Made by a program: the position numbers and the translations under genes. From positions 31,092 to 95,091 of the forward strand of contig JAVYOO010000005.1 in NCBI GenBank assembly GCA_038734275.1: 64,000 nucleotides of DNA, given 5' to 3'. This DNA comes from Archaeoglobaceae archaeon (GTDB lineage Archaea > Halobacteriota > Archaeoglobi > Archaeoglobales > Archaeoglobaceae). Position 1 is the stretch's first letter. Each line of letters starts with the position of its first letter. Below are positions 14,496-41,011 of the stretch, piece by piece. Below the pieces are notes generated by a model. The model worked only from the letters and a program-made list of their open reading frames with translations. It was not told the DNA's origin and searched no databases.

Positions 14496-14570
14496 GCTCC
14501 GGTGGTGTAGCCCGGTCAAACATAGGGGACTCTCGATCCCCTGCCCCGGGTTCAAATCCCGGCCGGAGCA
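14496..14570 (+). tRNA. tRNA-Glu: tRNA-Glu (anticodon CUC)
   Basis: A 75-nt cloverleaf with acceptor GCTCCGG/CCGGAGC, anticodon stem GGGGA/TCCCC, loop CTCTCGA and T-arm CCGGGTTCAAATCCCGG. No CCA is encoded. An A/T-rich box lies about 30 nt upstream. Confidence 0.9.
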
Positions 14571-16987: not shown

Positions 16988-17060
16988 GGGGCTCGTGGGG
17001 TAGTGGATATCCTGAGGGCCTCCGGAGCCCTCGACCCGGGTTCAATTCCCGGCGAGCCCG
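16988..17060 (+). tRNA. tRNA-Arg: tRNA-Arg (anticodon CCG)
   Basis: 73 nt with acceptor GGGCTCG/CGAGCCC, anticodon stem AGGGC/GCCCT, loop CTCCGGA and T-arm CCGGGTTCAATTCCCGG. No CCA is encoded. Confidence 0.9.
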
Positions 17061-17677: not shown

Positions 17678-18145
17678 TTAATTTGCTTTTTTACCATTGG
17701 TTCTCCCGTTCTTTATACCATTTTTACCGTTTGCAATTTTATCATTCTTCTTAATTCCGCTGTTCCGACTGTTAACTCCATTTGCACCACTTATTCCATT
17801 CTTGTTGTTCAAACCATTGCTGTTGATCCTGAAGCCATTGATTCCATTGCCATTTCTGTTATTGTTATTTCTCAGCATGTAGTATAGCCCGAAAACAATA
17901 CCAAGGATCAGTGCTCCAAGTGCAACGAGTTCGGGATGTTCCTCAAGAATGCTGGTAACCGCTTTTATGCCAAGAGCTGGACCAACTGCAAGTAATGAGA
18001 AAGCAATAAGGAATGGAGCTGTAATAAGAACGCTCAGCAAAGTTAGCGAACCAGTTAAAAGTGATCCGAGAAACATGATAACTCCAAATAATGCAAGTAG
18101 AGGCAGTCCCGCAAGGGATAGGAGCACTTCTATCATTGAACCCAT
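17678..18145 (-). CDS. membrane protein with Asn/Gly-rich basic C-terminal tail
   Basis: Three hydrophobic helices are followed by a low-complexity tail of about 60 aa (NNNNRNGNGINGFRINSNGLNNKNGISGANGVNSRNSGIKKNDKIANGKNGIKNGRTNGKKAN). Confidence 0.5.
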   Translation of the reverse strand: MGSMIEVLLSLAGLPLLALFGVIMFLGSLLTGSLTLLSVLITAPFLIAFSLLAVGPALGIKAVTSILEEHPELVALGALILGIVFGLYYMLRNNNNRNGNGINGFRINSNGLNNKNGISGANGVNSRNSGIKKNDKIANGKNGIKNGRTNGKKAN

Positions 18146-18190: not shown

Positions 18191-18664
18191 TTAGTAGAAA
18201 GTTCTATTGATAGCATTGCCAAGTTCCACAAGAACTCGAATGCTCATATTGGTCACATTCACGAGATTCCATGTTAAATTCCATAGATCAGACTGACTGG
18301 TTCGCAGTCGATGGGTTGTGTTGTTCAGTATGTATGAGAGTCCGCTTCTTCCAGTAAGGTCGCCGATTATTGATGTCACGTTGCTACCGAGATAGTTAAC
18401 CGCATTGCCAATATTAGCTAATGCGGTCTGATTCGTGGTAGCTATTGTAAAGCTTGTATTTAAAACTCCTATGCCATAGGAAGATGTAATTAGAACACCA
18501 TAAAGAATTCCCCAAACGTTAGAGAAATTCAGATTTTGACCCTGACTGACAAGAGTTGCATTTGTCGAAGCTTCTAAGGTGAGATTGAGTAAGTTTGTCA
18601 CAAATTCAAGATTCATGTTGATGATCGCAAGTGTTAGATTAACGAGTTCTGGAAGTGGGGGCAT
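18191..18664 (-). CDS. sequon-rich small protein, paralog family member 1 (uncharacterised)
   Basis: 157 aa with 13 N-x-S/T sequons. It carries the shared family core NQT-x14-SNVTSIIGDLTGRSGLSY. It has its own TATA box about 28 nt upstream. Confidence 0.55.
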   Translation of the reverse strand: MPPLPELVNLTLAIINMNLEFVTNLLNLTLEASTNATLVSQGQNLNFSNVWGILYGVLITSSYGIGVLNTSFTIATTNQTALANIGNAVNYLGSNVTSIIGDLTGRSGLSYILNNTTHRLRTSQSDLWNLTWNLVNVTNMSIRVLVELGNAINRTFY

Positions 18665-18688
18665 TCGAAAAGATGATGAACTTTATCG

Positions 18689-18696
18689 TTTATAAA
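18689..18696 (-). promoter_or_regulatory. TATA box (tttataaa) about 28 nt upstream of the ATG at 18664
   Basis: The spacing is consistent with a leaderless transcript of the 157-aa gene. Confidence 0.4.
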
Positions 18697-18708
18697 CTTT
18701 TTTACAGC

Positions 18709-19575
18709 TCAAATTATGACTGATTTCAAAGAAACGAAGAGCAAAAAAATGATTGAAATTATGCTGAAGGGAACAAGAATGAGATTTGGAGTTACTCTTA
18801 GGGCAACACCATCCCATCTTCGATTCACGATCACAACGAAGGCTATTGTGTATGGTATTACAACCGCGGAGAGTGTTTTGAGTTCGAAACTTCCGGCTTC
18901 GAGCAACACCAAAAACCAGAGAATAGCTGTGATCGTGCCGAGAGGATAAAGAGACCTCAGAACTCTCTCTGGACCAAAGAAAATCGGAGTATTCTTAAGC
19001 CCCGCCTTTTTGTCAAACTCGTAGTCCGAGACCGCTGTAGGTATGTAGAAAGTTGAAGCAAGGAGAAATGCGGAAACGTATACAATTAATGGCTGTTCTC
19101 CATTGCATGCCGAAACGCCTGCGTAAAAAACAAGGACTCCAGCAAGGGCGTTGCATATAACATCGGTAAGCGGATAAGCTTTGAACCTCGGCCATGCGGA
19201 ATAAAAATAGCCTATTGCATTTGCAACGAGCATTGCATAAAAGAATTGCATGTTTATGAGAAATGCAAAGATCTGAGAAGCTATAAGCGAGGCTGTTGCG
19301 ATTACCCATGCGGTTCTAACGCTTATCTCACCAGTAACGAGTGGTTGCTTTGAAAGGTCGAGATCCTTCGTTCTGCCGTCATGGAATTTGTCAACATCTC
19401 TATCGTAGATGGCATTGACAACAAAGCTAAAGCTCATCCAGAATGAGAATGAGAGGATTGCGAAGATCAGATTTTCTATTTCGATCCTTCCACCTACCCA
19501 CACCCCCGCACTGAATGGCAGAAGGAAGCAAGCCCATGCGTAAGGGCGTATAAGCCTGATGATTGCAGGTGTCAT
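18709..19575 (-). CDS. UbiA-family prenyltransferase
   Basis: It is polytopic with about 8-9 helices. It has Asp-rich motif 1 (NAIYDRDVDKF) and a second acidic motif region (DYEFDKKAG). Confidence 0.8.
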   Translation of the reverse strand: MTPAIIRLIRPYAWACFLLPFSAGVWVGGRIEIENLIFAILSFSFWMSFSFVVNAIYDRDVDKFHDGRTKDLDLSKQPLVTGEISVRTAWVIATASLIASQIFAFLINMQFFYAMLVANAIGYFYSAWPRFKAYPLTDVICNALAGVLVFYAGVSACNGEQPLIVYVSAFLLASTFYIPTAVSDYEFDKKAGLKNTPIFFGPERVLRSLYPLGTITAILWFLVLLEAGSFELKTLSAVVIPYTIAFVVIVNRRWDGVALRVTPNLILVPFSIISIIFLLFVSLKSVII

Positions 19576-19667
19576 GTGAAATAATGTGCAGGATTTATTT
19601 TAAATAATTTTTGCTCTTTAGCTTTGCATTGTCGAAAGACTTTTATTTAGAATGATAGATTGCTTTT

Positions 19668-20099
19668 GTGGTAAATGCAACAGACTTTGCAGTGCTACAC
19701 ATTGAAATGCTTCGAAGTCTTTTTGATCTTATTGCAAATACTTCTTTGCTCATGAGCAATGCATCGATAAATGCGATCGATATCTGGAATGCGACCTATT
19801 CTGCGATCAGCTTTCAGTATTGGGTTGCCAAGTCCTTTATTGGTGCTGGTGGTGCTTTTGATATTGCAAGACAGAATTTGACCGCAATGCGAGACTTCTC
19901 GGAGATTATAAATTTCCTTGGTCAAAATGCTACAAATATCTTCGGAAATCCAGCGGGAACAAAGGGCATGTCTGCTGTCTTCAAGAATATGACAACCTAT
20001 GTTGATCAGAACTTCACAGTCAGCTTGGCAAGAGCAATCAATGAGAGTGTAAGGTTCATAGGGAAGCTTTTGATGAACGTGAACACTTCATTTGTCTGA
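19668..20099 (+). CDS. sequon-rich small protein, paralog family member 2 (uncharacterised)
   Basis: 143 aa with a GTG start and 10 sequons. The family core is QNLT-x14-QNATNIFGNPAGTKGMSA. It is convergent with the 898-aa gene. Confidence 0.55.
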   Translation: MVNATDFAVLHIEMLRSLFDLIANTSLLMSNASINAIDIWNATYSAISFQYWVAKSFIGAGGAFDIARQNLTAMRDFSEIINFLGQNATNIFGNPAGTKGMSAVFKNMTTYVDQNFTVSLARAINESVRFIGKLLMNVNTSFV

Positions 20100-20121
20100 T
20101 TTTTAAAAAATTAAAGATGGA

Positions 20122-22818
20122 TTACTCCGGGTGTATCCAGTTGTAGTTCCATCTCGGATAAGCCCATGGTGCGGAAGTGTTGTTCAGCTCAGGCAAAGCC
20201 TTGAATAGTTCTATCAGAAGGTCTATGAGCGTGCTGAAAAGCTCCACAAGTCTGTATGCAAAGAGCTCTCGCTCGCTGTAGCTCAGAAGTCTGCTTCCAG
20301 ACCATATAAAGTTGAGCCCGTAGCAACGATAGGAGTTGGGATCATTCCAGGTGGGGTCGACAGGGCAATTGGGCGGTGGGGGTCCAAGGATGTTGCCAAG
20401 ATTTCTCATCAAAGCTTCTGAAGCTTCAACCGCCTTGTTAAAGACCGTTTGATTTGTGTAGCTGACCTTCATCAAATACCCTATGTCTCCAAGGTTCAGG
20501 AATGTGCTCACAACAAACGGGTAAACCAGAGTTCTTGGGGCAGAAACCATCAGGTTGAGCGTGGTTCTCAGGAATGGCGTAAATTCGACTATTAGGTCTT
20601 CAAATGCTCTAACGAGGTTTGCCTGATTCGTTGCATTGTTGTATCTGAAGTTCCAAATCGACATCTCCTTGCCCTGAGCTTCTGCAATGAACCTAAGGTT
20701 CTCATAGAGATAGTAAAGCCATAAGTGCTCGTAGCCCGTCCAGCCAGCTTGCGTTGTCGGATAATACGGAACGGTTTGAACAATTGCAACAAAGGGATGA
20801 ATGCCGAAGCGATGCCCAAGGATTACTCCGACTACGTGATTCTGGTCGCCATAGAGTCCAAGGAAGCCTATCAATCCGAGACCTCCGGGTCTGTCAGGGG
20901 GTATTGTGGCTGATCCCGTTGCGTCTATCCCTAAAAAGACATCTGGGATTCTAACGGGTGCACTAACAGTATAGGAAAAAACGTATTCAGTATGCGGTGC
21001 GCTAAAAGCCTCTTGGTAAGAGCTCATTCCACATATCGTAAGAGATTGCTGGGTCATGGAAAGATTTCCGGGACCTTCATGCTGACTGTAGTTAGTCCCA
21101 TTCATAAGCGATGCTAAGGTTCCACCGTAGGAAGCTATGGCAAGTTGGGCTGTGAAGCCAAGGGCGTTGTCTGGGATGTTCATCTGGATCAATGGTCCAA
21201 CTCTATAGCCTGAGAAAAGTCCACACCTATGTGCCCCTATGGGATTGCCATAGGGATCTGTGTCGATATAGCAATTGGGAGCGGTAATGACTCCGCCAAC
21301 GTTAGCCCCGATGCGTAAGGTAATAAGATGTATACTCACAGAAGCTCTAAGCGGGGTATATCCAGTGGGAGTTCTGTTACAGTAGGGTGTAATCAAATCA
21401 TCTCTTGTGCCAATCGTGATGCAAGCGGGAGTCCAGTAGGGTCTGATTGCATTGCCATATATTCCCTCTCTATCACATCCAGCGGTGTTATTGTCTGTGC
21501 AGTTGTAATCTAAGCCGAACTTCCATACACTGAAGCTTGCGCTGTTGTTGATGAACTTCTGGGATATCGGTATGTTTCGGTATTTTTGAACAGATGTGTC
21601 ATGGATGAACCATGCAAATCTTGCCCAGTCCACACCTCCAGGGTAATACATTCTCCCTATAAGGTCTAAAATGTATGTCGCTGGCACGATTGCAATATTT
21701 CTTCCACTATCAGCGGGCGGTGTTATCGTCTGACTACCGCATGATGGATCTTTAACGTATGCGGTGTTGTTGATCATGTATCCGTCATAAGCCTCTATTC
21801 GTGAGAAGTTCATTCTGTAACCCTCACCGCTGACAATTCTAATAAAAGGTGTTGTGTTGTTGGTAGGATGAGTGACCCCCATGCCTACGAACTGCTCATT
21901 TCCATATTCGTCGATAGCAAATAGTTTAATCGGGAAATTTCCTATTCCCGCGCCCCCAGTTGTTGTTGCCCGAGCCTGAAGGCTGACGGTTTGATTATAA
22001 ATAATATCGCTCCAGATTGGCGGAAAACTGCTTGAAACATAATTTACGCAAACTGAAGTGAGGCTTGCATCCGGAACATCTTGTATGAGCTCAACATAGT
22101 CCACCCAAATATAAGCACGTGCCATCGATCCGCACATGGTTTGTTGCATATTTCGATTAGCATCGCAGTCATAAGCTCTTGCGGTAATGTTGTATCTAAC
22201 CTCCCCAGTGATTGCGTTAACGAAATCCTGAGTAGGGATCGTGATATTATACCATCCCTCACCAGTGCGAATACCCGTTCCAGCACCTATTGTGTAGTTT
22301 AGATACCACGAATTTGCAGTCCAGTTCCAGACATAGATTTCGAAAAGAGCATATTCGGTTCCACCACAGCCAGTATTTCCAGTTTGATCTCCTTCGACTT
22401 CCCACCTTACATAGGCGTTTATTTGTATCGGACTCGCAGAACTTACAGATGGTCTGTATGCACTGAAGGACAGATTCAGGCTTGCCATTGCATATGAGTC
22501 ACATTGTCTTGTAACATAAAGAAGACCTACAGAGCCAGTTAGACAGTCCGAATCGAGATCTCCCACTGCCAAGCTGGCATCATCTCTGTAAGCCAGAATG
22601 TAGTAATCAACTGCGGTTAAAGGTTCACGTATTGGTGTCGTATTTTGTGGATGACCATACTCTTTAAATCCCCTCGGATATGGCATGTCTACTGTAATGT
22701 TAGCAAAAGTAACAACAAATTGTCTTGACTCCGCTATACTCAGACTAAAGATGAGAACGAGCGATATCAGGACAAATTTAAAAGCTTTTTTTGGTTTTCC
22801 TGAATAAGTTTTCATCAA
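20122..22818 (-). CDS. large secreted, sequon-rich protein (candidate surface or S-layer-like protein)
   Basis: 898 aa with an N-terminal signal peptide (KKAFKFVLISLVLIFSLSIAES). It has many N-x-S/T sites and Cys pairs. The C-terminal helical region carries the same motif as the small paralogs. There is no C-terminal anchor. Confidence 0.7.
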   Translation of the reverse strand: MMKTYSGKPKKAFKFVLISLVLIFSLSIAESRQFVVTFANITVDMPYPRGFKEYGHPQNTTPIREPLTAVDYYILAYRDDASLAVGDLDSDCLTGSVGLLYVTRQCDSYAMASLNLSFSAYRPSVSSASPIQINAYVRWEVEGDQTGNTGCGGTEYALFEIYVWNWTANSWYLNYTIGAGTGIRTGEGWYNITIPTQDFVNAITGEVRYNITARAYDCDANRNMQQTMCGSMARAYIWVDYVELIQDVPDASLTSVCVNYVSSSFPPIWSDIIYNQTVSLQARATTTGGAGIGNFPIKLFAIDEYGNEQFVGMGVTHPTNNTTPFIRIVSGEGYRMNFSRIEAYDGYMINNTAYVKDPSCGSQTITPPADSGRNIAIVPATYILDLIGRMYYPGGVDWARFAWFIHDTSVQKYRNIPISQKFINNSASFSVWKFGLDYNCTDNNTAGCDREGIYGNAIRPYWTPACITIGTRDDLITPYCNRTPTGYTPLRASVSIHLITLRIGANVGGVITAPNCYIDTDPYGNPIGAHRCGLFSGYRVGPLIQMNIPDNALGFTAQLAIASYGGTLASLMNGTNYSQHEGPGNLSMTQQSLTICGMSSYQEAFSAPHTEYVFSYTVSAPVRIPDVFLGIDATGSATIPPDRPGGLGLIGFLGLYGDQNHVVGVILGHRFGIHPFVAIVQTVPYYPTTQAGWTGYEHLWLYYLYENLRFIAEAQGKEMSIWNFRYNNATNQANLVRAFEDLIVEFTPFLRTTLNLMVSAPRTLVYPFVVSTFLNLGDIGYLMKVSYTNQTVFNKAVEASEALMRNLGNILGPPPPNCPVDPTWNDPNSYRCYGLNFIWSGSRLLSYSERELFAYRLVELFSTLIDLLIELFKALPELNNTSAPWAYPRWNYNWIHPE

Positions 22819-22859
22819 GCCCCATTTTATTATTATTGAATAAAAGGTTTTCTGTTACT

Positions 22860-24239
22860 TTATGGCTGGAGTTTTGAAACTCCAAAAGCCAATATCAAAG
22901 CCAAAAAGATCAATAAGATTGCATATAAAAGCTCCTTGGAGATTCCTAAGTCCCTTATTTGCTGGATATTTTCATTTGAATATGTTTTTTCCTGATTATC
23001 TTCAGGAGTTGAACTTACTTCTGGAGTCTTTGACTCATTTCTTCCAGCCTGAGTTTCCAACGCAGAAGAAATATCGAATATTGCATTTGGCTTATAGCTT
23101 TTCTCCCAGATAAGTTCACCATTTTTACTCATCTTGCCAAGCCAGATGCATTCGCCTTTACAGCCACTCGAAGTCAGCAGATAGCCATCATCTTCTTTAA
23201 GCATTCTGACAACTCCATATATTGATTCTTCAAATTTAAAGTTTTTTCTTAGAATAATTGGGTCTGAGTTGATCTTTGAAACCCAGAGAAATTCTCCTTC
23301 AGCATCTTTTCCACCACCCGCAATAATTTCTTCGTCATCTGCTATAACAGACCATGCAGACATCTTACCAGCATCAAAGAACCTTTTTAGTTTAATTTCT
23401 CCATTGCGATCGAGCTTTATTGCAAAGGCAACTGTTGATCCATCGCAACCCCCGCATCCGCAACCTCTCATCTCTTCTGTTATTTCCCCTACTACCATAT
23501 AACCATCTTTAACTTCTACAACATCCCAAGCCATCTCATCTTTTCCCAAATCGTAAAATTTGCTCCACTCGATCTCTCCATTCTCTTTTAGCTTCAGAAC
23601 CCAGATAATGTAATTTATATCACCGAAATAGTTATCTTCTTCATCGGGGTAATCTACTACATATCCAGCACCAATGTAGCCATTTGAGGCTCTCCTTAGC
23701 ATTTTGATGCTATCGTATTCCTCATAGTCTATTTTTTCTCTCCAAATTTCTTTACCATCTTTATGTAGCTTTATAAGAAAAGTGTCAGTATTGCCTGATT
23801 CGTTGGCGTTGTATATTGTCAATACTGCTAAAATATCCATTCCATCGGAAGAAATGCCGGTTACACCGCCTATAAATTCTATGAACTTTTTCTCCCAAAC
23901 AACTTCACCGAATTTATCAATCATAACCAGCCATGGATGCACATCATTAAAACCCGTATAACCGCCAATTAGATATCCTTCGTTAATCTCTATAATATGG
24001 CGGGCATGAGAAAAGTTGTCTCCTACATAGGTTTTATTCCAAATTTCATTTCCGTTCTTGTCAACTTTTATAACACATGCATTGCTTAAACCATAACTCA
24101 GCCCCGAAAGTCCAGCGATTACGTAGCCATCATCTGTTTTAATGAGAGAAGTGGGCATACTCCATGAACTAACTGGTGCTATAATTAGCATCAGCAACAG
24201 CAAATATATGATTTTCACGTTTGTATTTTGTTCAAACAT
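22860..24239 (-). CDS. membrane-anchored beta-propeller-repeat protein (paralog B)
   Basis: It has a signal peptide. It has reiterated units of the form D(G)GY[IL][IV]xG ... K[LIV]D/K..G..[IL]W.K. It ends in a Ser/Thr/Glu-rich stalk and a C-terminal TM helix (LLYAILLIFLALILAFGVS). Confidence 0.7.
   Translation of the reverse strand: MFEQNTNVKIIYLLLLMLIIAPVSSWSMPTSLIKTDDGYVIAGLSGLSYGLSNACVIKVDKNGNEIWNKTYVGDNFSHARHIIEINEGYLIGGYTGFNDVHPWLVMIDKFGEVVWEKKFIEFIGGVTGISSDGMDILAVLTIYNANESGNTDTFLIKLHKDGKEIWREKIDYEEYDSIKMLRRASNGYIGAGYVVDYPDEEDNYFGDINYIIWVLKLKENGEIEWSKFYDLGKDEMAWDVVEVKDGYMVVGEITEEMRGCGCGGCDGSTVAFAIKLDRNGEIKLKRFFDAGKMSAWSVIADDEEIIAGGGKDAEGEFLWVSKINSDPIILRKNFKFEESIYGVVRMLKEDDGYLLTSSGCKGECIWLGKMSKNGELIWEKSYKPNAIFDISSALETQAGRNESKTPEVSSTPEDNQEKTYSNENIQQIRDLGISKELLYAILLIFLALILAFGVSKLQP
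22874..22943. repeat. 70-bp direct repeat, copy 1 (69/70 identical to 24269-24338)
   Basis: The comparison was done by eye. It covers the C-terminal TM anchor coding region of both propeller paralogs. Confidence 0.9.
23065..23195. repeat. 131-bp perfect direct repeat, copy 1 (identical to 24436-24566)
   Basis: I compared the two copies character by character. The repeat encodes the last propeller blade (DDGYLLTSSGCKGECIWLGKMSKNGELIWEKSYKPNAIFDISS). Confidence 0.92.
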
Positions 24240-25589
24240 TTAAAGCTTTTCTCTACCAGATCCAAACCTTGAAACTCCAAAAGCCAATATCAAAGCCAAA
24301 AAGATCAATAAGACTGCATATAAAAGCTCCTTGGAGATCGTAAAGCTTTTCTTATGCTCTCGATCATCTTGGAGCGGAGAAATTCCTTCATTGCTCTCTT
24401 GGAATTTATTTTCGCTAGCTTGTGTCTCGAATATCGAAGAAATATCGAATATTGCATTTGGCTTATAGCTTTTCTCCCAGATAAGTTCACCATTTTTACT
24501 CATCTTGCCAAGCCAGATGCATTCGCCTTTACAGCCACTCGAAGTCAGCAGATAGCCATCATCTTCAAGAACTCTAACCAATCCGTAAATCGCCGGAAGA
24601 AATCTGAAATCCCCTTCTATAATCTTTGGAGATCCATTAATTTCAGAGAACCACAGATAATATCCTTCTTCATCAATTGCGGTTCCAAAAATCTTTGGTT
24701 CTGGATTGCATAGCACTGACCAAGCTGATGTGATTTTACCGACTTCAAAGAACTTTTTCCATTCGATATTACCTTTTAAATCTAACTTAATGGCAAAAGC
24801 CTTCGCTGTGTAATTTGAAACTGATGAACATCTGCAAGATAACTCTGGAAACGTCCCTCCAACAATTATATATCCATCTTTTACTTCCGCCACATCCCAA
24901 GCTACTTCATCAAATCCCAAATCCAAGATTTTACTCCACTCTTCATTTCCATCATTATCAAGCTTTAGGATCAGCAAATCATAATTTCTATAAAGACCAT
25001 TCACATAATCTCCAATACAACCAGCGCCAATAAATCCCCCATCGCCACTCTTTTTGATCATCTTTACGCTGTTGTAGTCTCTATAATCGAATATTCTTTT
25101 CCAGACTTCATTTCCATCTTTATCGAGTTTGACGATCAAAAGACTTTGATGTGAGCAATTATCTATGCTTAAGGGCATCGATATTGAAGCAACAATGCTG
25201 TCATTTTCAGAAACTAAAGCTGGAACACCGCTGATGCATCCATCATAGCCATAAATTTTTTGCCATAAAGGGCGCCCATTATAATTAACTTTTATAATTA
25301 ATCCTTTATCTCCTACTACTGAATTTCCAATCACTCCTCCGATCGCATATCCACTGGCTGTTCTCACAACGCTCCAAGCTTGTAAGTCGTAGTTTGTGGA
25401 ATATACTTTATCCCAGAGAAGCTCCCCATCTCGATCTATTTTCATAATAAAAGGACGTTTATAACCTGAGTAAATTGTTCCAGCAATGATATATCCACCA
25501 TCTGTCTTGTCTATTGAAAAAGGTATAGACCATGCGCTAATTGGTAGGAGGATACTGGAAATCAAAAGCAAGAAGAACCAAATTTTCAC
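24240..25589 (-). CDS. membrane-anchored beta-propeller-repeat protein (paralog A)
   Basis: It has the same architecture as the downstream paralog. Its stop abuts the downstream start with a 0-nt gap. An AT-rich promoter-like box lies at about 25600-25640. Confidence 0.7.
   Translation of the reverse strand: MKIWFFLLLISSILLPISAWSIPFSIDKTDGGYIIAGTIYSGYKRPFIMKIDRDGELLWDKVYSTNYDLQAWSVVRTASGYAIGGVIGNSVVGDKGLIIKVNYNGRPLWQKIYGYDGCISGVPALVSENDSIVASISMPLSIDNCSHQSLLIVKLDKDGNEVWKRIFDYRDYNSVKMIKKSGDGGFIGAGCIGDYVNGLYRNYDLLILKLDNDGNEEWSKILDLGFDEVAWDVAEVKDGYIIVGGTFPELSCRCSSVSNYTAKAFAIKLDLKGNIEWKKFFEVGKITSAWSVLCNPEPKIFGTAIDEEGYYLWFSEINGSPKIIEGDFRFLPAIYGLVRVLEDDGYLLTSSGCKGECIWLGKMSKNGELIWEKSYKPNAIFDISSIFETQASENKFQESNEGISPLQDDREHKKSFTISKELLYAVLLIFLALILAFGVSRFGSGREKL
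24269..24338. repeat. 70-bp direct repeat, copy 2
   Basis: There is one mismatch (t/c) relative to 22874-22943. Confidence 0.9.
24436..24566. repeat. 131-bp perfect direct repeat, copy 2
   Basis: It is identical to 23065-23195. The flanking stalk-coding DNA is strongly diverged. Confidence 0.92.
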
Positions 25590-25651
25590 GTTAATACTCT
25601 TTCAGTATAATATTTAAAATTTTTTACACCTAACTGTTGGAGAAAAATCTA

Positions 25652-26110
25652 TCAAGTGTAGAAGAGTATCAACCTCTCTCCAACCTTCCCAAGGGCTGAG
25701 AATAGCCATTTAAAGAACTGTAAAACCCAATAGACGGTCTCAGGTCCTTTATTTTGGCAGTAGAATCCGGGCTGAATACACTGGTAGCCAACGTTCCAGA
25801 GATAAGCCATTCCTTTCGTTCCGTTCCAGTCACCAAAAACAATTGTGGAATTGTTCGCCATTTTCTGCCATACACGAACGCTGTAGTCCATCGTTGTGGA
25901 ATTGTTGTAAACATAGTATATGTGATCCGCTATGAAGTCGGAGAAGTATTTAAGATGACCAAATATGTAAATGATAGCATCTGCGGTTTCGTTTGCAATT
26001 AGCTCGCTAACAGCAATTGTTCTGAGAATTGTCCCAAAGAATATGGCAACTCCAGAAACGAAATCCATCACATAGGTTGCCGCAATCCAGACATCTATTG
26101 GCATAGGCAC
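25652..26110 (-). CDS. sequon-rich small protein, paralog family member 5 (uncharacterised)
   Basis: 152 aa with an N-terminal hydrophobic helix. The family core is NNST-x14-NNSTIVFGDWNGTKGMAY. Its start abuts the upstream stop. Confidence 0.55.
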   Translation of the reverse strand: MPMPIDVWIAATYVMDFVSGVAIFFGTILRTIAVSELIANETADAIIYIFGHLKYFSDFIADHIYYVYNNSTTMDYSVRVWQKMANNSTIVFGDWNGTKGMAYLWNVGYQCIQPGFYCQNKGPETVYWVLQFFKWLFSALGKVGERLILFYT

Positions 26111-26641
26111 TCACGGAGGGAAATAAACTGTCGGCACGAGTCTCAAAGCATCTGAAACAAGAATTATTAGGTTCTTTAATGCTCCCCAGAAATTCAGTGC
26201 GAACTCAGGAGCGATGGTCTGGTTGTTGGAGACATTTGAAAGCTGTGTTGTTGCAGCTCTCAGCAGGAATGTTATTCCGTTCTGTCCCATTGCATCTCCG
26301 AACATCTTTGTTCCATTTCCCGCAGCTATTGCTACAACGTTCGAAAATTCGTCTCTAAGACCCACAGGAAGCCCAGTTATTGGATCAGTAACGGTTGTAT
26401 TGTTTCTTATATGCCATATAAAGCCCCTTTCCTCAAAGAGCATCTTTCTGAGCCATGTCATCATTGCTGTGCCGTTATACCATATTTCCCAGAAGCTCTG
26501 ATAGTCGGTTCTCGTGCCAACAAGTCTTGTCTCATTGCGCCCCGTGTAGACTAAGTATATGAAAAACTCTTTCAGCAATCCAAATAATGATGAAAGCCCC
26601 TGAAGGATCACATCGCCAAGATACCAGAAAGACGAGGGCAT
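26111..26641 (-). CDS. sequon-rich small protein, paralog family member 4 (uncharacterised)
   Basis: 176 aa with the family core GNGTKMFGDAMGQNGITF. There is a 3-nt gap to the upstream gene. Confidence 0.55.
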   Translation of the reverse strand: MPSSFWYLGDVILQGLSSLFGLLKEFFIYLVYTGRNETRLVGTRTDYQSFWEIWYNGTAMMTWLRKMLFEERGFIWHIRNNTTVTDPITGLPVGLRDEFSNVVAIAAGNGTKMFGDAMGQNGITFLLRAATTQLSNVSNNQTIAPEFALNFWGALKNLIILVSDALRLVPTVYFPP

Positions 26642-26644
26642 AGC

Positions 26645-27073
26645 TCAGAGAAACTCGTAGGCTTTTGCTATATACATCACGAGACTCTTTAAAGCGCGGA
26701 AAAAGTCCACCGTTATATTGTAGGCAAGCGGTTTGTTTGTTGTGAAGTTTAGGTTTGACTGATTTGCTATATAAGCCATACCCGTGTTACCCGTAAAATT
26801 TCCGAAGAAGTTGGTATAGTTTACAGAGAGTTCTCTAAGCGTGTCGTTAAACGCAGCTACGAGTGTCTGATTCTGGGCTGTAACCCCCATGATTGCAGCG
26901 AGGAACTTCACAAGCCAGACTTGTATTGCCATGAGACCGTAGATGAAGTCGGGATGTGTTGGCGGTAAAGTTGACATTATGGGCTCAAGCATTCCATGGA
27001 TTAAGATGAATGAATCCTGAATCGGTTGCAGAATTCCTCTTGCAACGAATTCACTTGCTCTGGCTATCGGCAT
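26645..27073 (-). CDS. sequon-rich small protein, paralog family member 3 (uncharacterised)
   Basis: 142 aa with the family core QNQT-x14-VNYTNFFGNFTGNTGMAY. All 7 sequons lie C-terminal to a single hydrophobic segment. Confidence 0.55.
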   Translation of the reverse strand: MPIARASEFVARGILQPIQDSFILIHGMLEPIMSTLPPTHPDFIYGLMAIQVWLVKFLAAIMGVTAQNQTLVAAFNDTLRELSVNYTNFFGNFTGNTGMAYIANQSNLNFTTNKPLAYNITVDFFRALKSLVMYIAKAYEFL

Positions 27074-27503
27074 GTGTTCACCCGAATTCGTTCTGTTATT
27101 AGGTTCGGTTTTATCTCATCTCTAAGTAGCAGACTTGAAAGATCGTTAAGGTTATTCTCTGGCATCTCTAAACCCATAAAAACACAAACACCCAAACTAC
27201 CCACTACCACCTCCAAATTACTATATAAGCGATTAATATAATTCACCATCTCTTTATTATGGGTGCGAAATGTGATCATTCCATTCCAGATTTATCTTCC
27301 TTAATAAAAACTTTTTCCATTATGGGGGTATTGAAAATCATGATACATCTGTGCATCCATTCCAGTTTTTGTTTGATGGCTTTCGCAAAAGTAAAGGGCA
27401 GACTTTTGAGTGGCTTATGGTAGCCTAAATGCCTTGGATCTTTAGCTGTGCTTTGGCAGAGTTATGGAAAATCTTATTATATGGTTATTTTTAACCATGA
27501 TCT

Positions 27504-31268: not shown

Positions 31269-31311
31269 AGCTGGACATTTTCGATCGAATTTTTAATTCT
31301 TTTGAGCAACA

Positions 31312-31394
31312 TGCGGAGGGGGGGATTCGAACCCCCGAACCCCTACGGGACTGGACCCTAAATCCAGCGCCTTTGACCACTCGGCAACCTCCGC
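31312..31394 (-). tRNA. tRNA-Leu: tRNA-Leu (anticodon UAG)
   Basis: An 83-nt class II tRNA with a long variable arm. The acceptor is GCGGAGG/CCTCCGC, the anticodon stem is CTGGA/TCCAG and the loop is TTTAGGG. No CCA is encoded. Confidence 0.9.
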
Positions 31395-31417
31395 AAATAT
31401 AGTTTGAGTAGTGCTTT

Positions 31418-31870
31418 TTAAATATCTTGCCCTAACTTAGTAAAGCTTAATAAGTGAAGCGTCAAAAGTTTTTCGGGCTCGTAGCTCAGCGGTAGAGCGC
31501 CGCCTTCGCGAGGCGGAGGCCCCGGGTTCAAATCCCGGCGAGTCCATGTTTTTCTGGGATTAGAGACTTCATAAATACCATCGTTAAGTTCTCGATTTTT
31601 TGAATTGCTTGATTTTCGGTTTGGAGGTTGTGGAATTTTATTCTCTTTGGATATCTCATATGGGTTGGCAACTCGGTTGCCAACTATGTGTATGAAAAAC
31701 CACTCTCTATCACGGTAAATCTCCGCTTCACAACCGATAAGTTCGGAAAATTCCACTGGCAACAGCAAGTAAGGGTATTCAAAGTCCTCTTTGGCTTTCT
31801 TTTTTCGAATAGCTACTTTTCTAACAAGTTCCATAAAGACATTGTTGACAACTTGAGAAAAGACTTCCAA
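31418..31870 (-). CDS. hypothetical small protein (possibly AbrB/SpoVT-like); 3' part runs antisense through tRNA-Ala
   Basis: The ORF is 150 aa. The segment YLLLPVEFSELIGCEAEIYRDREWFFIHIV loosely resembles swapped-hairpin DNA binders. The true 3' end and expression are uncertain. The central 87 bp is duplicated at 45355-45441. Confidence 0.3.
   Translation of the reverse strand: MEVFSQVVNNVFMELVRKVAIRKKKAKEDFEYPYLLLPVEFSELIGCEAEIYRDREWFFIHIVGNRVANPYEISKENKIPQPPNRKSSNSKNRELNDGIYEVSNPRKTWTRRDLNPGPPPREGGALPLSYEPEKLLTLHLLSFTKLGQDI
31475..31546 (+). tRNA. tRNA-Ala: tRNA-Ala (anticodon CGC)
   Basis: 72 nt with acceptor GGGCTCG/CGAGTCC, which contains the G3:U70 Ala identity pair. The anticodon loop is TTCGCGA. 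No CCA is encoded. Confidence 0.92.
31676..31762. repeat. 87-bp perfect inverted repeat, copy 1 (reverse complement of 45355-45441)
   Basis: I verified the reverse complement character by character. Weaker similarity continues about 35 nt beyond one end. Confidence 0.92.
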
Positions 31871-31985
31871 ATTTGCTTTTAGAAATCATTTGAGCTCATT
31901 ATAGAGAATATAGAGAATTTTGAAGTTTTTATTTTTACTCTGAATCAGCAGTTAATTTTTTACAGCCATTGTATAGCATAAACTC

Positions 31986-32816
31986 ATGTGGAAAAGATGG
32001 CTGTTAATTCTGGTGCTCTTATTGATAATTTTGGTCTCTGGATGCATTGAATTTAGAGATATAGGGGCTGGAAAATCACTGGAAGAATGCAACATCCTTA
32101 AAAAACAATACGAAGAGCTTGCAAATGACTATAACAGACTGTGGGACGAATATAACTCGCTTCTGAATAAGTACTCCGCTCTCAAAATGGATTTAGGATT
32201 TGCAAAGCTACCCCCATATGTCGTGATCGAAAATAGAACGGTAAATATAATTTTCAAAACGTCCAAAGGGGGCTTGCATGTTTGGTTTGTCCCGATAGAG
32301 ACTCTGGAGTTGACCATAATTCGGGGATATTACGAAAGAAAAAACTTACAATACAAAATTCTAAAAAATGAGAAGATGGGGGAGTTCTATAGGGTTGTGG
32401 ATGTCAGTCGATTTATTGACGATAGGAGCTTTTCAAAAGTAATGCCTGAGCTATATAAAGAGCTTAATAGTGACGAAGCTTTTATCCAGGAAGTTTGGTA
32501 TATTGCTACCCAGCTGACTGTTTATCATCCAGAATTAGAAGAAATTCCCCGATTCCCGATCGAAACCCTTATTGGTGGTGGAGGAGATTGCGAAGACATT
32601 GCAATTTTGATCGCAAGTATGTTGAAAGCTGCGCAGGCAAATTACATAGTTAAGATCGTTTATATGGACTCTGAGAATCCAAGTGAACCAAAAAAAGTTA
32701 ATCATGCCATTGTTTGGGTTGAAACTCCTAGTGGATACAAGACATTCGTCGATGGAACATGTAAGGAGTCAATTAGCCCATTTACAGAAGTTAGCGGATG
32801 GTATCTCGAAGTTTAA
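31986..32816 (+). CDS. lipoprotein-like protein with C-terminal transglutaminase-like cysteine protease core
   Basis: It has a signal peptide with a lipobox-like LVSGC and a coiled-coil segment. Candidate Cys/His/Asp triad elements are GGGGDCEDIAILIASML, NHAIVWVE and VDGT. Confidence 0.55.
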   Translation: MWKRWLLILVLLLIILVSGCIEFRDIGAGKSLEECNILKKQYEELANDYNRLWDEYNSLLNKYSALKMDLGFAKLPPYVVIENRTVNIIFKTSKGGLHVWFVPIETLELTIIRGYYERKNLQYKILKNEKMGEFYRVVDVSRFIDDRSFSKVMPELYKELNSDEAFIQEVWYIATQLTVYHPELEEIPRFPIETLIGGGGDCEDIAILIASMLKAAQANYIVKIVYMDSENPSEPKKVNHAIVWVETPSGYKTFVDGTCKESISPFTEVSGWYLEV

Positions 32817-32826
32817 AAAATATAAT

Positions 32827-33201
32827 TTACTTCTTAATAAGCTCCTCAATAGCCTCTCTGCACGCCGCGACCGCCTGAGCACCGCCTGCAACGAAGATCA
32901 CCCGAATTGCCTCGACGATTTCTTCTCTCGTAGCTCCACGGTTCATCGCCCCTCGCATTGCTGAAGTGACGCATTCCTTGCAATGCCTTTGGGCTCCCAT
33001 TGCCATAACCAGCATGAGCTTGAACTTCGCAGGCAGAGCTCCGTCTTCCTGTATTGCTTTATCGCAGAACTCATAGAACTCAACAGCCTTCGGATCAAGC
33101 TCTTTAACAAGCTTCATAATTCCCGGGGCAAACCCCATCTTCTTCTCTATGCTTTTAACAACTTTTTCGTGCTGAGTCATATAACCACCAATCATAATCA
33201 A
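32827..33201 (-). CDS. carboxymuconolactone decarboxylase (AhpD-like) family protein
   Basis: The helical AhpD-like core contains the HCKECV motif. The start is uncertain (TTG at 33201, ATG at 33195 or 33180). Confidence 0.65.
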   Translation of the reverse strand: MIMIGGYMTQHEKVVKSIEKKMGFAPGIMKLVKELDPKAVEFYEFCDKAIQEDGALPAKFKLMLVMAMGAQRHCKECVTSAMRGAMNRGATREEIVEAIRVIFVAGGAQAVAACREAIEELIKK

Positions 33202-33256
33202 TAATTGTATATATAACCCTATTCCTCCTTTTCAATCAATTCGAAGACCGCACAAT

Positions 33257-33264
33257 TTTTTAAA
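33257..33264 (+). promoter_or_regulatory. TATA-like box (tttttaaa) about 28 nt upstream of the hypF ATG
   Basis: The spacing is consistent with a leaderless hypF mRNA starting near 33288. Confidence 0.4.
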
Positions 33265-33287
33265 GTTTGCAAGCTCAGAATTTGCAA

Positions 33288-35582
33288 ATGCTCAAAGCGA
33301 TCAGAATCAAGCTCATCGGAGTTGTTCAGGGAGTTGGTTTAAGACCATTTGTTTACCGCTTGGCGGTAGCCAAAGCTCTTAATGGCTATGTTCGAAATAT
33401 GGGGGGTAGCGAAGTCGAAATTCTTGTAGAGGGTTCTGATGAAGCCTTAAAATCCTTCATAGATAGACTGCAAAAGGAAAAACCGATTTCCGCAAGGTTC
33501 GAGCAAGTTATTATTGAAGAAGTTGAGCCTTGTGGCTATAAGGATTTCAAAATTCTAAAAAGCGATTCGAAATTTGAGGAAAGAAGCATAATCCCGCCAG
33601 ATTTTGCGATCTGCAAAGACTGTGCTCAAGAAATCTTGAGCTCAGGCAGTAGATTCTATCGCTACCACTGGAACAGCTGTGCTTGGTGCGGTCCGAGATT
33701 TTCCATGCTCTATAGTTTGCCATACGACCGTGAAAACACCGCAATGAACCAATTTCCTCTTTGCGAAGAATGCTCAAGTGATTATGGCAATCCAGGGAAT
33801 TTGAGGAGATTTCATGCTCAGGGAATAAGCTGTCCAAAGTGCGGTCCGAAAACGCTCGTTTACGATTTGAATGGAAAAAGAATGGTTGTGGAGGATGCAG
33901 TTGATTTTGCGGTCGAGAAGCTCCTTGAAGGTAAGATTCTCGCTATAAAGGGAATTGGTGGTTATCACATAGCCTGTCTTGGCTCAGACGACTCCATCGT
34001 CTTGGAGCTGAGGAAGAGAAAAAGAAGGGAGAACAAACCATTTGCCTTAATGGCGAAAGATTATAGTGTGGTAGAGAAAATTGCAGACCCGCCCTCGGGG
34101 GCAAAAGAGCTTTTGGAGTCTCCAGAAAGACCAATAGTTGTGATGCCAAAGAAAGGCTCTTCGGTTTCTGAATTCGTTGCTCCGGGGCTTTCCACAATCG
34201 GAATAATGCTTCCTTACTCAGCATTTCAGATTCTTCTTTTAAGCAAAATTCCAGACGGATTTCTAATAATGACGAGCGGAAATGTTCACGGAAAGCCGAT
34301 GTGCAGAAACCTTGAAGAAGTTTTTTCACAGCTTTCTGGCATTGTTGACTACGTTGTTGAGCATGAAAGGGAAATCGTGCACAGGGTTGATGACAGCGTT
34401 CTGAGATTCACAGATGGTGAGCCTGTTTTCCTGCGAAGAGGCAGGGGCTATGCTCCTGAGTGGATTAAAGTTTGCAGAGATTTGCCCAATGGCATAGCTC
34501 TTGGAGCAGAGCTACAAACCGCTGGAGCAATTTCATTTGATAACAAGGTTGTTTTAACGCAATTCATTGGAGACCTTGATGAAATCGAGAATCTTGAGGC
34601 AATGAAGAGCGAAATAAGCTGGCTTGTTGAGAATTACCGAATAAAGCCCGAATTCATAGCCATTGACATGCATCCACTTTATCACAACAGAAAATTGCTC
34701 AAAGATTTTCCTTCAGCCCCAGTTTTTGAAGTCCAGCACCATCATGCTCACGCAGTGTCTGCAATTGCAGAACTCGGCTTGGAACCAGAAGATAAGGCTT
34801 TAGCGATAACGATCGACGGAACTGGTTATGGCGACGACGGGGCTATATGGGGTGGAGAAGTGCTGATTGCAAACTGGAAAGAATACGAAAGGATTGCAAG
34901 CCTTAAGCCATTCAACCTTCCTGGCGGAGACAGCTCCGCAAAATATCCCGCAAAATCTCTGATTGCCCTAATGAGCTCTTATGGGTTTAAAGAGGATGAA
35001 ATTCTTGAGCTTCTGAATGAAAGAAACCTAATCGATTCTTTGCCCTATGGCTTGAAAGAAGCTGAAATCACATGCATGATTGCAAAGAAAGGAAAAGGAG
35101 TTGCAACTACAAGCTTGGGAAGGATTTTAGATGCCTTTTCAGCACTGCTTGGCATTTGCACAGAAAGAACCTATGAGGGAGAGCCACCGATGAAGCTTGA
35201 AGCCTTGGCAGACTTTGGAAAGGACTTTAAGCTAACTGCGAAGCTTTGCAAAGAAGACAGAATCCTTATAGACGTTAAGAACTTGCTCGAATGGGCAATT
35301 GAAAGCGAAGGTAAAAAAGAGGACCTCGCAAGAACAGTTTTGCAGGGAATAGGGAGGGCACTTGGCTTGACTGCACTCGAGGTTTTCAGGCAAAGGAGTC
35401 TGGAATACGAAAAAGTTATTGTCACTGGTGGTGCGGGTGTGAATACATACCTCGTTAAAGGAATTCGGGAGATTCTCTCCGCAGAAGAAATTGAGGTTTA
35501 TTTGCCCAGAAAAACCCCCCTTGGGGACGGTGGAATCGCTTTGGGGCAAATACTTATAGCTTCAGCCAATTTGATGCTTTAA
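33288..35582 (+). CDS. hypF: [NiFe]-hydrogenase maturation carbamoyltransferase HypF
   Basis: It has an acylphosphatase-like N-terminus (VQGVGLRPFVYRLA). It has two Zn-finger pairs (CKDC...CAWCGPRFS, CEEC...CPKCGPK). YrdC-like and Kae1-like domains follow. The length is about 765 aa. Confidence 0.93.
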   Translation: MLKAIRIKLIGVVQGVGLRPFVYRLAVAKALNGYVRNMGGSEVEILVEGSDEALKSFIDRLQKEKPISARFEQVIIEEVEPCGYKDFKILKSDSKFEERSIIPPDFAICKDCAQEILSSGSRFYRYHWNSCAWCGPRFSMLYSLPYDRENTAMNQFPLCEECSSDYGNPGNLRRFHAQGISCPKCGPKTLVYDLNGKRMVVEDAVDFAVEKLLEGKILAIKGIGGYHIACLGSDDSIVLELRKRKRRENKPFALMAKDYSVVEKIADPPSGAKELLESPERPIVVMPKKGSSVSEFVAPGLSTIGIMLPYSAFQILLLSKIPDGFLIMTSGNVHGKPMCRNLEEVFSQLSGIVDYVVEHEREIVHRVDDSVLRFTDGEPVFLRRGRGYAPEWIKVCRDLPNGIALGAELQTAGAISFDNKVVLTQFIGDLDEIENLEAMKSEISWLVENYRIKPEFIAIDMHPLYHNRKLLKDFPSAPVFEVQHHHAHAVSAIAELGLEPEDKALAITIDGTGYGDDGAIWGGEVLIANWKEYERIASLKPFNLPGGDSSAKYPAKSLIALMSSYGFKEDEILELLNERNLIDSLPYGLKEAEITCMIAKKGKGVATTSLGRILDAFSALLGICTERTYEGEPPMKLEALADFGKDFKLTAKLCKEDRILIDVKNLLEWAIESEGKKEDLARTVLQGIGRALGLTALEVFRQRSLEYEKVIVTGGAGVNTYLVKGIREILSAEEIEVYLPRKTPLGDGGIALGQILIASANLML

Positions 35583-37280: not shown

Positions 37281-37294
37281 GGATCTTCGAGAGT

Positions 37295-38329
37295 TCAGCA
37301 GATCCTTGGAACAAGCTCTCCTCTCGGGGGCTCGACAATTCTGAAGCCACCTACAGCAGTTTTCATGAGCACATAGCCCTTGTATTTCTCGCTCTTTCGG
37401 ACTTCTCCGATCAAGCGAGCATTCTCAAAGCCTTGCTTTTTTAGAGCCTCAAGAAACTCTTCAGCAACTTCAGAGCTAACAGAGAAAAGTGCAGAACCCT
37501 CGCTTGCTAAGTAGATCGGATCTATGCCAAGCATTTCAGAATATCTTTTGACTGGTTCCTTTATTGGCAGATCGCTGTCGACAACAAGCACAGCTTCAAC
37601 ATTTTTAGCCCAGTCGTTAAGCACGCCTCCAAGTCCGCCCCTTGTAATGTCTCTGCATGCGTTTATGTGCTCAGAGTAAGCGTTAATGACTGGCAGAAGT
37701 GCTGTAAGTGGCTTTGCATCGCTCCTGAGCATTCCGCATTTAAGCTCTTCCACATCGCTGAGACCCATCTGGAGCATCATTATCACCGCTCCGTGATCGC
37801 CTACATAGTCTGTTACGATCAGCTTGTCCCCTTCTTTCGGCAGATCGACAATTGTTCTCTCAGCGATCCCAAGAACCGTGGTTGTAATCACTATTCTGTC
37901 AATTCCCCCTTTTGGCATGACTTTAAAGTCACCACCAACCAGTGCAACACCTTCTTTCTTGAAAACTTCAATCAGCGAATCGACTATGGTCTTTAGATCT
38001 TCAATCGGAAAACCCTCTTCGACTATGATCGAATCAAGCCCCGCTATTGGCTTTGCCCCCATAACAACAACGTCGTTGATCGAGCCTATCGCTGAGAGCA
38101 TTCCTATATTGCCCCCGGGAAAAAATGGGGGGTTTACCGTGTATGAGTCCGTAGAAACAACGATCTTTGAGTTTTTTACAGGAATCACCGCACCGTCATC
38201 GGGAAGATCAATCCCAAGTCCTTCAGGGACCTTCTTTAATCTTTCTGGAACCTTAGAGAACAGAATTTCGTTAAGCAACTCTCCAGTTTCTTCTCCGCCA
38301 GACCCATGGGCTAATTTAACGAATTTCAC
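37295..38329 (-). CDS. hypE: hydrogenase maturation protein HypE
   Basis: It has a PurM-like fold sequence, an N-terminal LAHGSGG motif and the diagnostic C-terminal ...PRIC. Confidence 0.92.
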   Translation of the reverse strand: MKFVKLAHGSGGEETGELLNEILFSKVPERLKKVPEGLGIDLPDDGAVIPVKNSKIVVSTDSYTVNPPFFPGGNIGMLSAIGSINDVVVMGAKPIAGLDSIIVEEGFPIEDLKTIVDSLIEVFKKEGVALVGGDFKVMPKGGIDRIVITTTVLGIAERTIVDLPKEGDKLIVTDYVGDHGAVIMMLQMGLSDVEELKCGMLRSDAKPLTALLPVINAYSEHINACRDITRGGLGGVLNDWAKNVEAVLVVDSDLPIKEPVKRYSEMLGIDPIYLASEGSALFSVSSEVAEEFLEALKKQGFENARLIGEVRKSEKYKGYVLMKTAVGGFRIVEPPRGELVPRIC

Positions 38330-38616: not shown

Positions 38617-38620
38617 TTTC

Positions 38621-39832: not shown

Positions 39833-39866
39833 ACAGAATTTGCAACCTATTTAAAAACTTTTCAGC

Positions 39867-40990: not shown

Positions 40991-41011
40991 TCAACCCCAC
41001 GAATGTTGAGC

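Follow-up and report, generated by a model that had tools for sequence, protein, structure and literature searches.

Sequon-rich small proteins of the Archaeoglobi: a previously undescribed family and its candidate glycosylated surface assembly with a variable head

The DNA considered here is a stretch of 64,000 nucleotides (nt), referred to throughout as the window, from contig JAVYOO010000005.1 of an Archaeoglobaceae archaeon (assembly GCA_038734275.1, positions 31,092 to 95,091 of the forward strand). It contains a module of genes for five small paralogous proteins (m1 to m5), a secreted protein of 898 amino acids (aa) that we call the giant, and two beta-propeller proteins. The five small proteins and the C-terminal tail of the giant constitute a single, previously undescribed family that is found only in the Archaeoglobi. 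We slightly favor the view that the module encodes an extracytoplasmic, N-glycosylated and heteromeric helical assembly, specific to the Archaeoglobi, which carries a variable head. This view rests on the homology of the six domains, the selection acting on their sequons (N-x-S/T), their amino acid composition, the signal peptides present on some homologues, the order of the genes and the existence of a cassette that differs between strains; the glycosylation itself, the physical co-assembly of the subunits, their stoichiometry and the anchoring by the propellers are predicted from sequence.

An initial annotation of this DNA had singled out five small open reading frames (ORFs) as mutually homologous, and all of them are indeed present. 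Three head an operon on the minus strand: m3 (26645-27073, 142 aa), which has a GGTGA ribosome-binding site before its ATG, is followed by m4 (26111-26641, 176 aa), m5 (25652-26110, 152 aa), the two propeller genes (propeller 2 at 24240-25589, 449 aa; propeller 1 at 22860-24239, 459 aa) and finally the gene of the giant (20122-22818). The successive gaps are 3, 0, 62, 0 and 41 nt, the first two being as originally described. The m2 gene (19668-20099, plus strand, 143 aa) is convergent with that of the giant, their stops lying 22 nt apart, and m1 (18191-18664, minus strand, 157 aa) is separated from the core operon and follows a UbiA-family gene. Four of the five proteins begin with Met-Pro, as had been noticed. 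Each small ORF opens at the first start codon downstream of a stop, so that a hidden N-terminal extension is impossible.

The relationship among the five proteins, which had been proposed by eye, is borne out by an hhalign comparison of profiles made from the orthologue group of each: every one of the ten pairs is significant (E 4.5e-7 to 1.2e-23, probability 92.6–99.6%). Pairwise BLASTP (nominal database size 1e6) detects only the relationships among m1, m2 and m3 (E from 1e-4 to 1.7e-7), and by this method m4 and m5 have no significant match to the other paralogs. The proposed core motif can be found in every member, with one departure in m5, where V replaces the expected I, M or F (NNSTIVFGD). 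The reported spacing of 17 residues between the Asn of this core and that of another sequon is likewise present in four of the five (positions 78/95 in m1, 70/87 in m2, 68/85 in m3 and 70/87 in m5); the exception is m4, which carries an insertion. In an alignment of m1–m5 and three orthologues of m2, the invariant positions of the pattern N-x-T...G-D/N-x-x-G-x-x-G are two Asn, a single Thr and the three Gly; among 37 aligned sequences Met1, N78 and G101 never vary, and conservation exceeds 90% at N95 and G108. A conserved Cys pair follows the Gly loop in m5. The amphipathic helices that had been suggested at both ends are largely substantiated, since nine of the ten end segments reach P<0.05 and one does not. 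An AlphaFold2 model of m1, built from the 37-sequence alignment, is low in confidence (predicted local distance difference test score, pLDDT, 43.8) but entirely helical, comprising seven helices and placing the Gly motif in a loop; Foldseek found nothing below E=4 for this model in the PDB.

That the family matches no characterized one, as had been claimed, is upheld by searches of Pfam, NCBIfam, PHROGs and PDB sequences, all of which came back empty for the small proteins. For the module as a whole, the first three collections yielded nothing except UbiA, which belongs to a neighboring gene, and weak matches of the propellers; no PHROG family matches the small proteins or the giant. For profiles of the small family, the PDB sequences offered nothing beyond de novo designed helical proteins (E>0.08), and the giant retrieved nothing meaningful. 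A search of the literature on AF_1625, on Archaeoglobus S-layer genes and on Archaeoglobus glycoproteins found nothing on the small-protein family. A provirus origin of the locus is rejected on account of its housekeeping-gene flanks, its syntenic chromosomal site in relatives and the lack of viral matches. An exhaustive HMMER search of 1.84e9 cluster representatives returned 50 hits, or about 48 clusters once two strong-looking hits had been removed as tandem-repeat artefacts (P0058 and P0092, the P-numbers designating database hits). The family members that could be placed taxonomically all belong to the Archaeoglobi, except for two records from metagenome-assembled genomes (MAGs) that are labeled bacterial. 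Two homologues of the family or of the giant (P0037 and P0050) are deposited under the name of a bacterial MAG, Thermodesulforhabdus norvegica (ENG14_058xx); with 48% or more identity to the Archaeoglobaceae proteins of the window, they probably come from a mis-binned archaeal contig.

The giant had been correctly recognized as an 898-aa protein with a signal peptide, which a direct reading of its sequence confirms, and its translation probably begins at an ATG situated one codon past the TTG that is listed as its start. It had been treated, however, as separate from the small proteins, and this needs revision because the giant itself carries a copy of the family domain. Its last ~200 residues match the family profile in hhalign (95.8%, E 7e-9, with an aligned core at about 782-880), residues 721-804 of an 826-aa homologue (P0091) match the small-family profile with an E of 1.6e-5 against 1.84e9 proteins, and the small-family hidden Markov model (HMM) directly matches the giants of two related genome loci (L004 and L009). 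This divergent sixth copy (about residues 690-898, window 20122-20751, minus strand) has a Cys-pair insertion inside its G-x-x-G-x-x-G loop. The same C-terminal domain is already catalogued in Pfam, as a domain of unknown function, since precomputed annotation places PF27237 (AF_1625_C) on the A. neptunius orthologue of the giant; the Pfam entry differs from the present description in having no functional annotation, and none of the small proteins examined in related loci has a precomputed Pfam family. Within the sources searched, the tie between the tail of the giant and the small proteins appears to be new.

From its N-terminus the giant consists of a Sec signal peptide, a variable beta-sandwich N-terminal third, a conserved center rich in Cys and His, and the helical C-terminal domain. 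The AlphaFold2 model made from nine sequences (pLDDT 52.9) has moderately confident beta-sandwich domains at 106-370, an unresolved Cys/His-rich center and a helical C-terminus at 690-873. Its Foldseek matches in the PDB and BFVD are generic strings of beta-sandwiches (complement/macroglobulin MG domains, phage tail proteins) with TM-scores near 0.1, and we set them aside as uninformative. The most conserved stretch of the giant's family, GGLGLIxFxGLxxDxxHVVGxxLGHRFGIHPFVAIV, with three invariant His and one invariant Asp, lies at residues ~645-690 (window ~20750-20885); further upstream C466, C480, C532, GYR 537-539 and H580-E581-x-P583 are also invariant. These conserved Cys/His residues could form a metal-binding or catalytic site in a region where the AlphaFold confidence is low.

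All members of the family in the window are rich in sequons. The counts of 13, 10 and 7 given initially for members 1 to 3 are exact, the full set for m1–m5 being 13, 10, 7, 7 and 6, and in a composition-matched shuffle every one of the five exceeds expectation (P<=2e-4 each). The corresponding shuffle means are 4.6, 2.3, 1.2, 1.6 and 0.9, so that the small proteins have three to seven times the composition-matched expectation; the giant has 23 sequons against a mean of 8.2 (P<=2e-4). Residue shuffles reveal no such enrichment in the propellers, in UbiA or in the 155-aa membrane protein encoded beside m1. Across 90 family members there are 554 occurrences of N-x-S/T compared to 127 of the reversed motif, with 173 in the +1 register and 159 in the +3 register, and 47% of all the Asn residues of the family are found in sequons. 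NxT outnumbers NxS by 380 to 174 (2.2:1) despite the equal abundance of Thr and Ser, and each orthologue class has three to five times the expected sequons, with four to seven positions conserved in at least half of its members. A pattern of this sort, register-specific, NxT-preferring and with positions conserved within each class, is the mark of selection for oligosaccharyltransferase sites rather than of composition.

Comparison of the window with related genome loci (L-numbers, which are among the matches listed from the genome collection) bears out the suggestion that the clustering of the family with the giant and propeller genes is conserved in other Archaeoglobi. A near-identical locus is found in the MAG GCA_038888215.1, and the named relatives are all Archaeoglobaceae or Archaeoglobi. 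The order m2-m3-m4-m5 recurs in A. neptunius, in MAGs labeled A. fulgidus and in other Archaeoglobi MAGs, usually with a propeller gene and a giant; A. neptunius and the A. fulgidus-labeled MAGs have one propeller each, and in A. neptunius its gene comes after that of the giant and is read from the other strand. A second Archaeoglobaceae lineage (L009) has a leaderless m1, an m1 with a signal peptide and a giant, with m2–m5 on the opposite strand and no propeller nearby. In an archaeon designated L015, a signal-peptide m1 is followed by leaderless m2–m5, with no giant nearby. From this comparison it follows that the core of the module is m2–m5, in fixed order and one copy each, commonly accompanied by the giant and often by a propeller. 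The single copy of each class suggests a fixed stoichiometry.

The inclusion of m1 in a five-gene module is not sustained by the same comparison, as it lies outside the conserved operon core. In the window's own lineage (the window, L001 and L027) m1 is behind the UbiA-family gene and m2 has moved to the far side of the giant; in several Archaeoglobi MAGs signal-peptide m1-like genes stand in tandem, two or three together, or m1 is solitary. The m1 class is thus mobile and multipliable. In the window its two neighbors, oriented as it is, encode a polytopic membrane protein of 155 aa and a UbiA-family prenyltransferase (genes at 17678-18145 and 18709-19575, both minus strand). The membrane protein has an Asn/Gly-rich tail and diverges faster than its neighbors (69% in L027). 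Both were considered as parts of the module and rejected, their adjacency to m1 being confined to the window's lineage. A contig with mcrA (L025) encodes, at 2075-5616, four very divergent leaderless members of 190, 144, 148 and 164 aa that adjoin a 434-aa Peptidase_C25-like protein (E 4e-6) in place of a giant or propeller.

The two proteins downstream of m5 are, as they had been described, membrane-anchored beta-propellers, each with a signal peptide, a propeller of the SBBP/CylK-like type and a C-terminal transmembrane (TM) segment. They match NCBIfam NF047494 at 1.5e-7 and 4.8e-11, which is below the full-length cutoff, the CylK propeller in the PDB at 4e-10 and the beta-propeller repeat phrog_8401 at 9.5e-13. 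Their overall identity to each other is 45%, but over the final ~100 residues they hardly differ except in the linker that precedes the TM segment. Although the window does have twin propellers, the pairing is a strain-specific tandem duplication, since the sister strain and other genera have only one; one lineage has no propeller nearby at all. Downstream of the paralogs in L015 (14088-16282) are two proteins of 388 and 348 aa with a signal peptide, a long coiled-coil and a C-terminal TM segment; these proteins of SlaB-like layout could be alternative anchors where the propeller is missing.

A comparison of the window with its sister strain discloses an abrupt discontinuity within the module. 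RibC, UbiA, m1, m3 and m4 are 100% identical at the protein level and m2 and m5 are 96% identical; the giant is 96.8% identical over residues 651-898, 67.5% over 301-650 and only 42% over 1-300, and the window's propellers have 34–38% identity to the single propeller of the sister strain. The divergence of the giant's head and of the propellers between sister strains is thus at the level seen between genera. At the DNA level, 98% identity ends at window position 25657 and identity resumes (93%) at 21937. The hypervariable segment between these points (21937-25657) comprises both propeller genes and the first ~290 codons of the giant, and it is an allelic cassette that has been replaced on a conserved helical base. 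The parts encoded by the cassette are presumably exposed at the surface, and an exchange of head and propeller between strains would fit diversifying selection of the kind exerted on a virus receptor, an adhesin or a determinant of cell–cell recognition. Such cassette-type antigenic variation in a hyperthermophilic archaeon would bear on virus–host interactions in the ecosystems of the hot subsurface and vents. The window has five transfer RNA (tRNA) genes (Glu-CTC, Arg-CCG, Leu-TAG, Ala-CGC and Met-CAT at 14496-14570, 16989-17060, 31311-31395, 31475-31546 and 57847-57921, respectively), none of which abuts the module or the variable cassette.

A replaced surface-exposed cassette also invites a different interpretation of the locus, which we consider unlikely: the giant would be the surface layer (S-layer) glycoprotein of the Archaeoglobaceae, and the small paralogs and propeller would provide its stalk and membrane anchor, in the manner of SlaA/SlaB or tetrabrachion. 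S-layer cassette switching occurs in Clostridioides difficile, and the replacement of the exposed part between our strains resembles it. The giant is moreover a sequon-rich, multi-beta-sandwich protein of ~100 kDa with a signal peptide and no TM segment of its own, and it adjoins a propeller partner that has a C-terminal TM segment. S-layer lattice data for the Archaeoglobales are given in a review (PMC5744192) whose passages on them name no gene. Against this interpretation, none of the curated S-layer models in Pfam or NCBIfam (S_layer_N/C, DUF1608, SlaA/SlaB, SLH, etc.) matches the giant or its orthologues, so that it has no similarity to known S-layer families; five distinct, single-copy accessory subunits are unlike any described S-layer, and the giant closes a six-gene operon rather than being a strongly expressed monocistron. 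The family has, in addition, only ~48 clusters, and none was seen named from the type strain of A. fulgidus, A. profundus, A. veneficus, Ferroglobus or Geoglobus, and class-wide universality is for this reason not supported.

The cellular location of the small proteins is a separate question. As had been remarked initially, none of the five has an obvious Sec signal or class III leader, and a direct reading of their N-termini reveals none. They were also rightly kept apart from the archaellins and type IV pilins: the class III leader is missing, there is no K/R-G/A site in register, the best hydrophobic 12-mers reach at most 2.45, most of them with a charged residue, and the Pilin_N, DUF7289, DUF1628 and archaellin models have no match at E<=1. 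Pilin-like genes at 2450-3929 of the same window, used as a positive control, do match Pilin_N/DUF7289. They belong to a locus (3-3929, plus strand) whose first product, a VWA-domain protein of 831 aa, carries ~4 sequons in every 100 aa; two type IV pilin-like proteins come next, and the products of this locus served as extracellular positive controls for composition and sequon density. Judged as N-glycosylated extracytoplasmic proteins, the five exceed the composition-matched sequon density and lack a recognizable export signal.

Signal peptides are present elsewhere in the family. Of 16 distant homologues inspected from the HMMER search, 11 have classical n-h-c signal peptides with AxA-type cleavage (for example MKKLLVASLALLILTPVALA, cleaved before EDF), and further copies of this sort were found in the genome loci. 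Most are of the m1 class, and among the classes m1–m5 Sec signal peptides are known from m1 alone, in other Archaeoglobi; the predicted mature N-terminus of these homologues aligns with Met1 of the window's m1. The bias in composition (DEKR minus NQST) is −6.6 to −30.6 for m1–m5 and −9.9 for the giant, compared to −6.4 to −7.8 for the type IV pilin-like controls and +9 to +28 for the window's cytoplasmic ORFs. In other genomes the leaderless and the signal-peptide-bearing members share this composition, low in charged and high in polar residues, their neighbors being at +5 to +16. In composition, the small proteins resemble the extracellular proteins of the window and not its cytoplasmic ones. 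The existence of signal-peptide homologues, the fusion of the domain to a Sec-exported protein and the extracellular type of composition are three independent arguments for an extracytoplasmic location.

These observations also bear on the role of assembly factor, which the initial annotation had offered as an alternative. In the form considered here, in our opinion improbable, the small proteins would serve the giant and the propellers as chaperones or assembly factors, either in the cytoplasm or at the membrane periphery, and their richness in N-x-S/T would come from helix capping or composition and not from glycosylation. All members of m2–m5 are leaderless, they are tightly linked in an operon to secreted proteins, and the low-confidence monomer model is compatible with a protein that folds only on its partner. 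Neither capping nor composition, however, predicts a register-specific, NxT-preferring enrichment; the composition is far outside the organism's cytoplasmic range; and homologues with cleavable signal peptides exist, as does the fusion of the domain to the C-terminus of a Sec substrate. Composition and sequon selection thus disfavor the assembly-factor alternative. Slightly less credible still is that they are integral or monotopic membrane proteins, held by central or N-terminal hydrophobic helices that are not cleaved off, which would give the giant a membrane-embedded platform or pore. In favor of this, charged residues are few (7–15%), some segments are borderline hydrophobic (m3 43-61, 1.91; m5 21-39, 1.81; 19-residue Kyte–Doolittle) and in m3, m4 and m5 every sequon comes after the first hydrophobic helix. 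Against it, D, E, K or R occur within the hydrophobic stretches, which have homologous helices in the secreted, signal-peptide-bearing members, the conserved sequons of m1 and m2 flank the central hydrophobic helix on both sides, and NQST amounts to 20–38% of residues compared to 14–18% in the window's likely membrane proteins.

The glycosylated extracytoplasmic assembly that we favor would be constructed from a single building block, a novel all-helical domain of about 150 residues. The small proteins m1–m5 and the C-terminal domain of the giant would form a heteromeric bundle of helices, held together by the amphipathic helices at their ends. It might be a discrete base or stalk; alternatively it might be a fiber in which m1 is the repeated subunit, m2–m5 are single-copy adaptors and the giant is docked by its subunit-like tail. 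In either case the assembly would display the beta-sandwich head of the giant at the cell surface, the signal-peptide/TM-anchored propeller protein(s) would be the membrane-proximal partner, and the helical base would remain nearly invariant while the head varies. The original proposal of glycoprotein subunits of a non-type-IV surface structure thus retains its novel family, its sequons and the indications of an extracytoplasmic location; a fiber is not specifically indicated, as a discrete stalk complex or an S-layer would fit equally well. More tentatively, we can envisage a new kind of Archaeoglobi surface appendage or stalk of helical, heavily N-glycosylated subunits, exported for the most part without Sec, Tat or class III signals; a large adhesin or receptor would be inserted into it by a subunit-like C-terminal domain, and the head of this protein would be swapped together with the propeller.

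Several observations weigh against the favored assembly. No Sec, Tat or class III signal was found on m2–m5 in any genome examined, nor on the window's m1, and m1–m5 have no convincing TM segment or signal anchor (19-residue Kyte–Doolittle maxima of 1.0–1.9, with charges inside), which leaves the export of the leaderless subunits without a recognizable route. The AlphaFold confidence is low for both m1 (pLDDT 43.8) and the giant (52.9), and the bundle model is consequently without structural support. The propeller is missing next to the module in L009 and L015 and is hence not obligatory; genes of the m1 class are also encountered singly or as tandem arrays with no giant nearby; and the most distant members inspected (P0084 and P0096) have no sequons at all. 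The functional interpretation is drawn entirely from sequence, and the confinement of the family to one class limits its generality. Nonetheless, the module is a concrete candidate for envelope or S-layer components of the Archaeoglobales, and if its leaderless, sequon-rich subunits are indeed glycosylated outside the cell, their export pathway would be new to the archaea.

Upstream of the operon, a 71-aa ORF (27064-27279, minus strand) that had been noted as possibly preceding it is not supported as a conserved protein. It overlaps the m3 start, and its counterpart in L027 (58 aa, with the same start and stop context) is 29% identical, compared to 86% for m3 and ~78–88% for the small proteins in general; it is missing wherever m2 precedes m3, and when the intergenic region is shuffled, 4.4% of the shuffles contain an ORF as long. 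It is therefore doubtful that the sequence is coding, and we regard it as a 5' leader or as an upstream ORF that evolves fast. Farther out, ~230 nt before the m3 ATG, a conserved A/T-rich box (AAAAGTTTTTATTAAG, 27300-27315, minus strand) is a candidate for a promoter element of the TFB-recognition element (BRE)/TATA type. Elsewhere in the window, a CRISPR (clustered regularly interspaced short palindromic repeats) array at 45501-48460 (plus strand) has 44 identical 30-nt repeats (CTTTCAATCCCATTTTGGTCTGATTTCAAC) with spacers of about 35–53 nt, and there are no ORFs of at least 140 aa between 44827 and 48894 around it. In the sister-strain contig (L001 1-1260) a match to window 44547-45321 almost directly precedes the match to window 31662; the intervening ~13 kb (31662-44547, including HypF and several enzymes) is absent or rearranged in L001, though a MAG assembly join is possible.

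Among known systems, the closest in genetic organization are the type IV minor-pilin operons with a tip adhesin (fimU-pilVWXY1E and the archaeal pilin-like loci), which share with the module small paralogs in a fixed-order operon, a large surface protein and a beta-propeller; m1, set apart and sometimes multiplied, is reminiscent of a major subunit. The archaeal pilins and archaellins are heavily glycosylated, as m1–m5 are predicted to be. Type IV pilins nonetheless have a class III signal, a prepilin-peptidase site and a hydrophobic N-terminal helix of ~20 residues, all missing in m1–m5; their fold is alpha/beta and that of the module is modeled as all-helical, and the module's propeller is a separate TM-anchored protein. 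An analogy, and no more, can be drawn with the FimH-type tip adhesins of the chaperone–usher pili, which likewise combine a variable N-terminal head with a subunit-like C-terminal docking domain; these belong to another domain of life and employ an Ig-like fold with donor-strand exchange instead of the proposed helical bundle, and the chaperone and usher are absent here. SlaA/SlaB of the Sulfolobales and the tetrabrachion of Staphylothermus resemble the module in having a large glycosylated outer protein with an adjacent, smaller membrane-anchored partner and, in tetrabrachion, a helical-bundle stalk; they differ in lacking any sequence similarity to it or any counterpart of the five leaderless paralogs, and their anchor is a coiled-coil rather than a beta-propeller with a TM segment. 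The known surface structures of archaea include type IV pilin-like filaments, S-layers, cannulae, hami, threads, bundling pili, Mth60 and Tat fimbriae. By sequence the module fits none of these families; by its inferred function it would belong to a familiar and broad category, that of the surface glycoprotein complexes.

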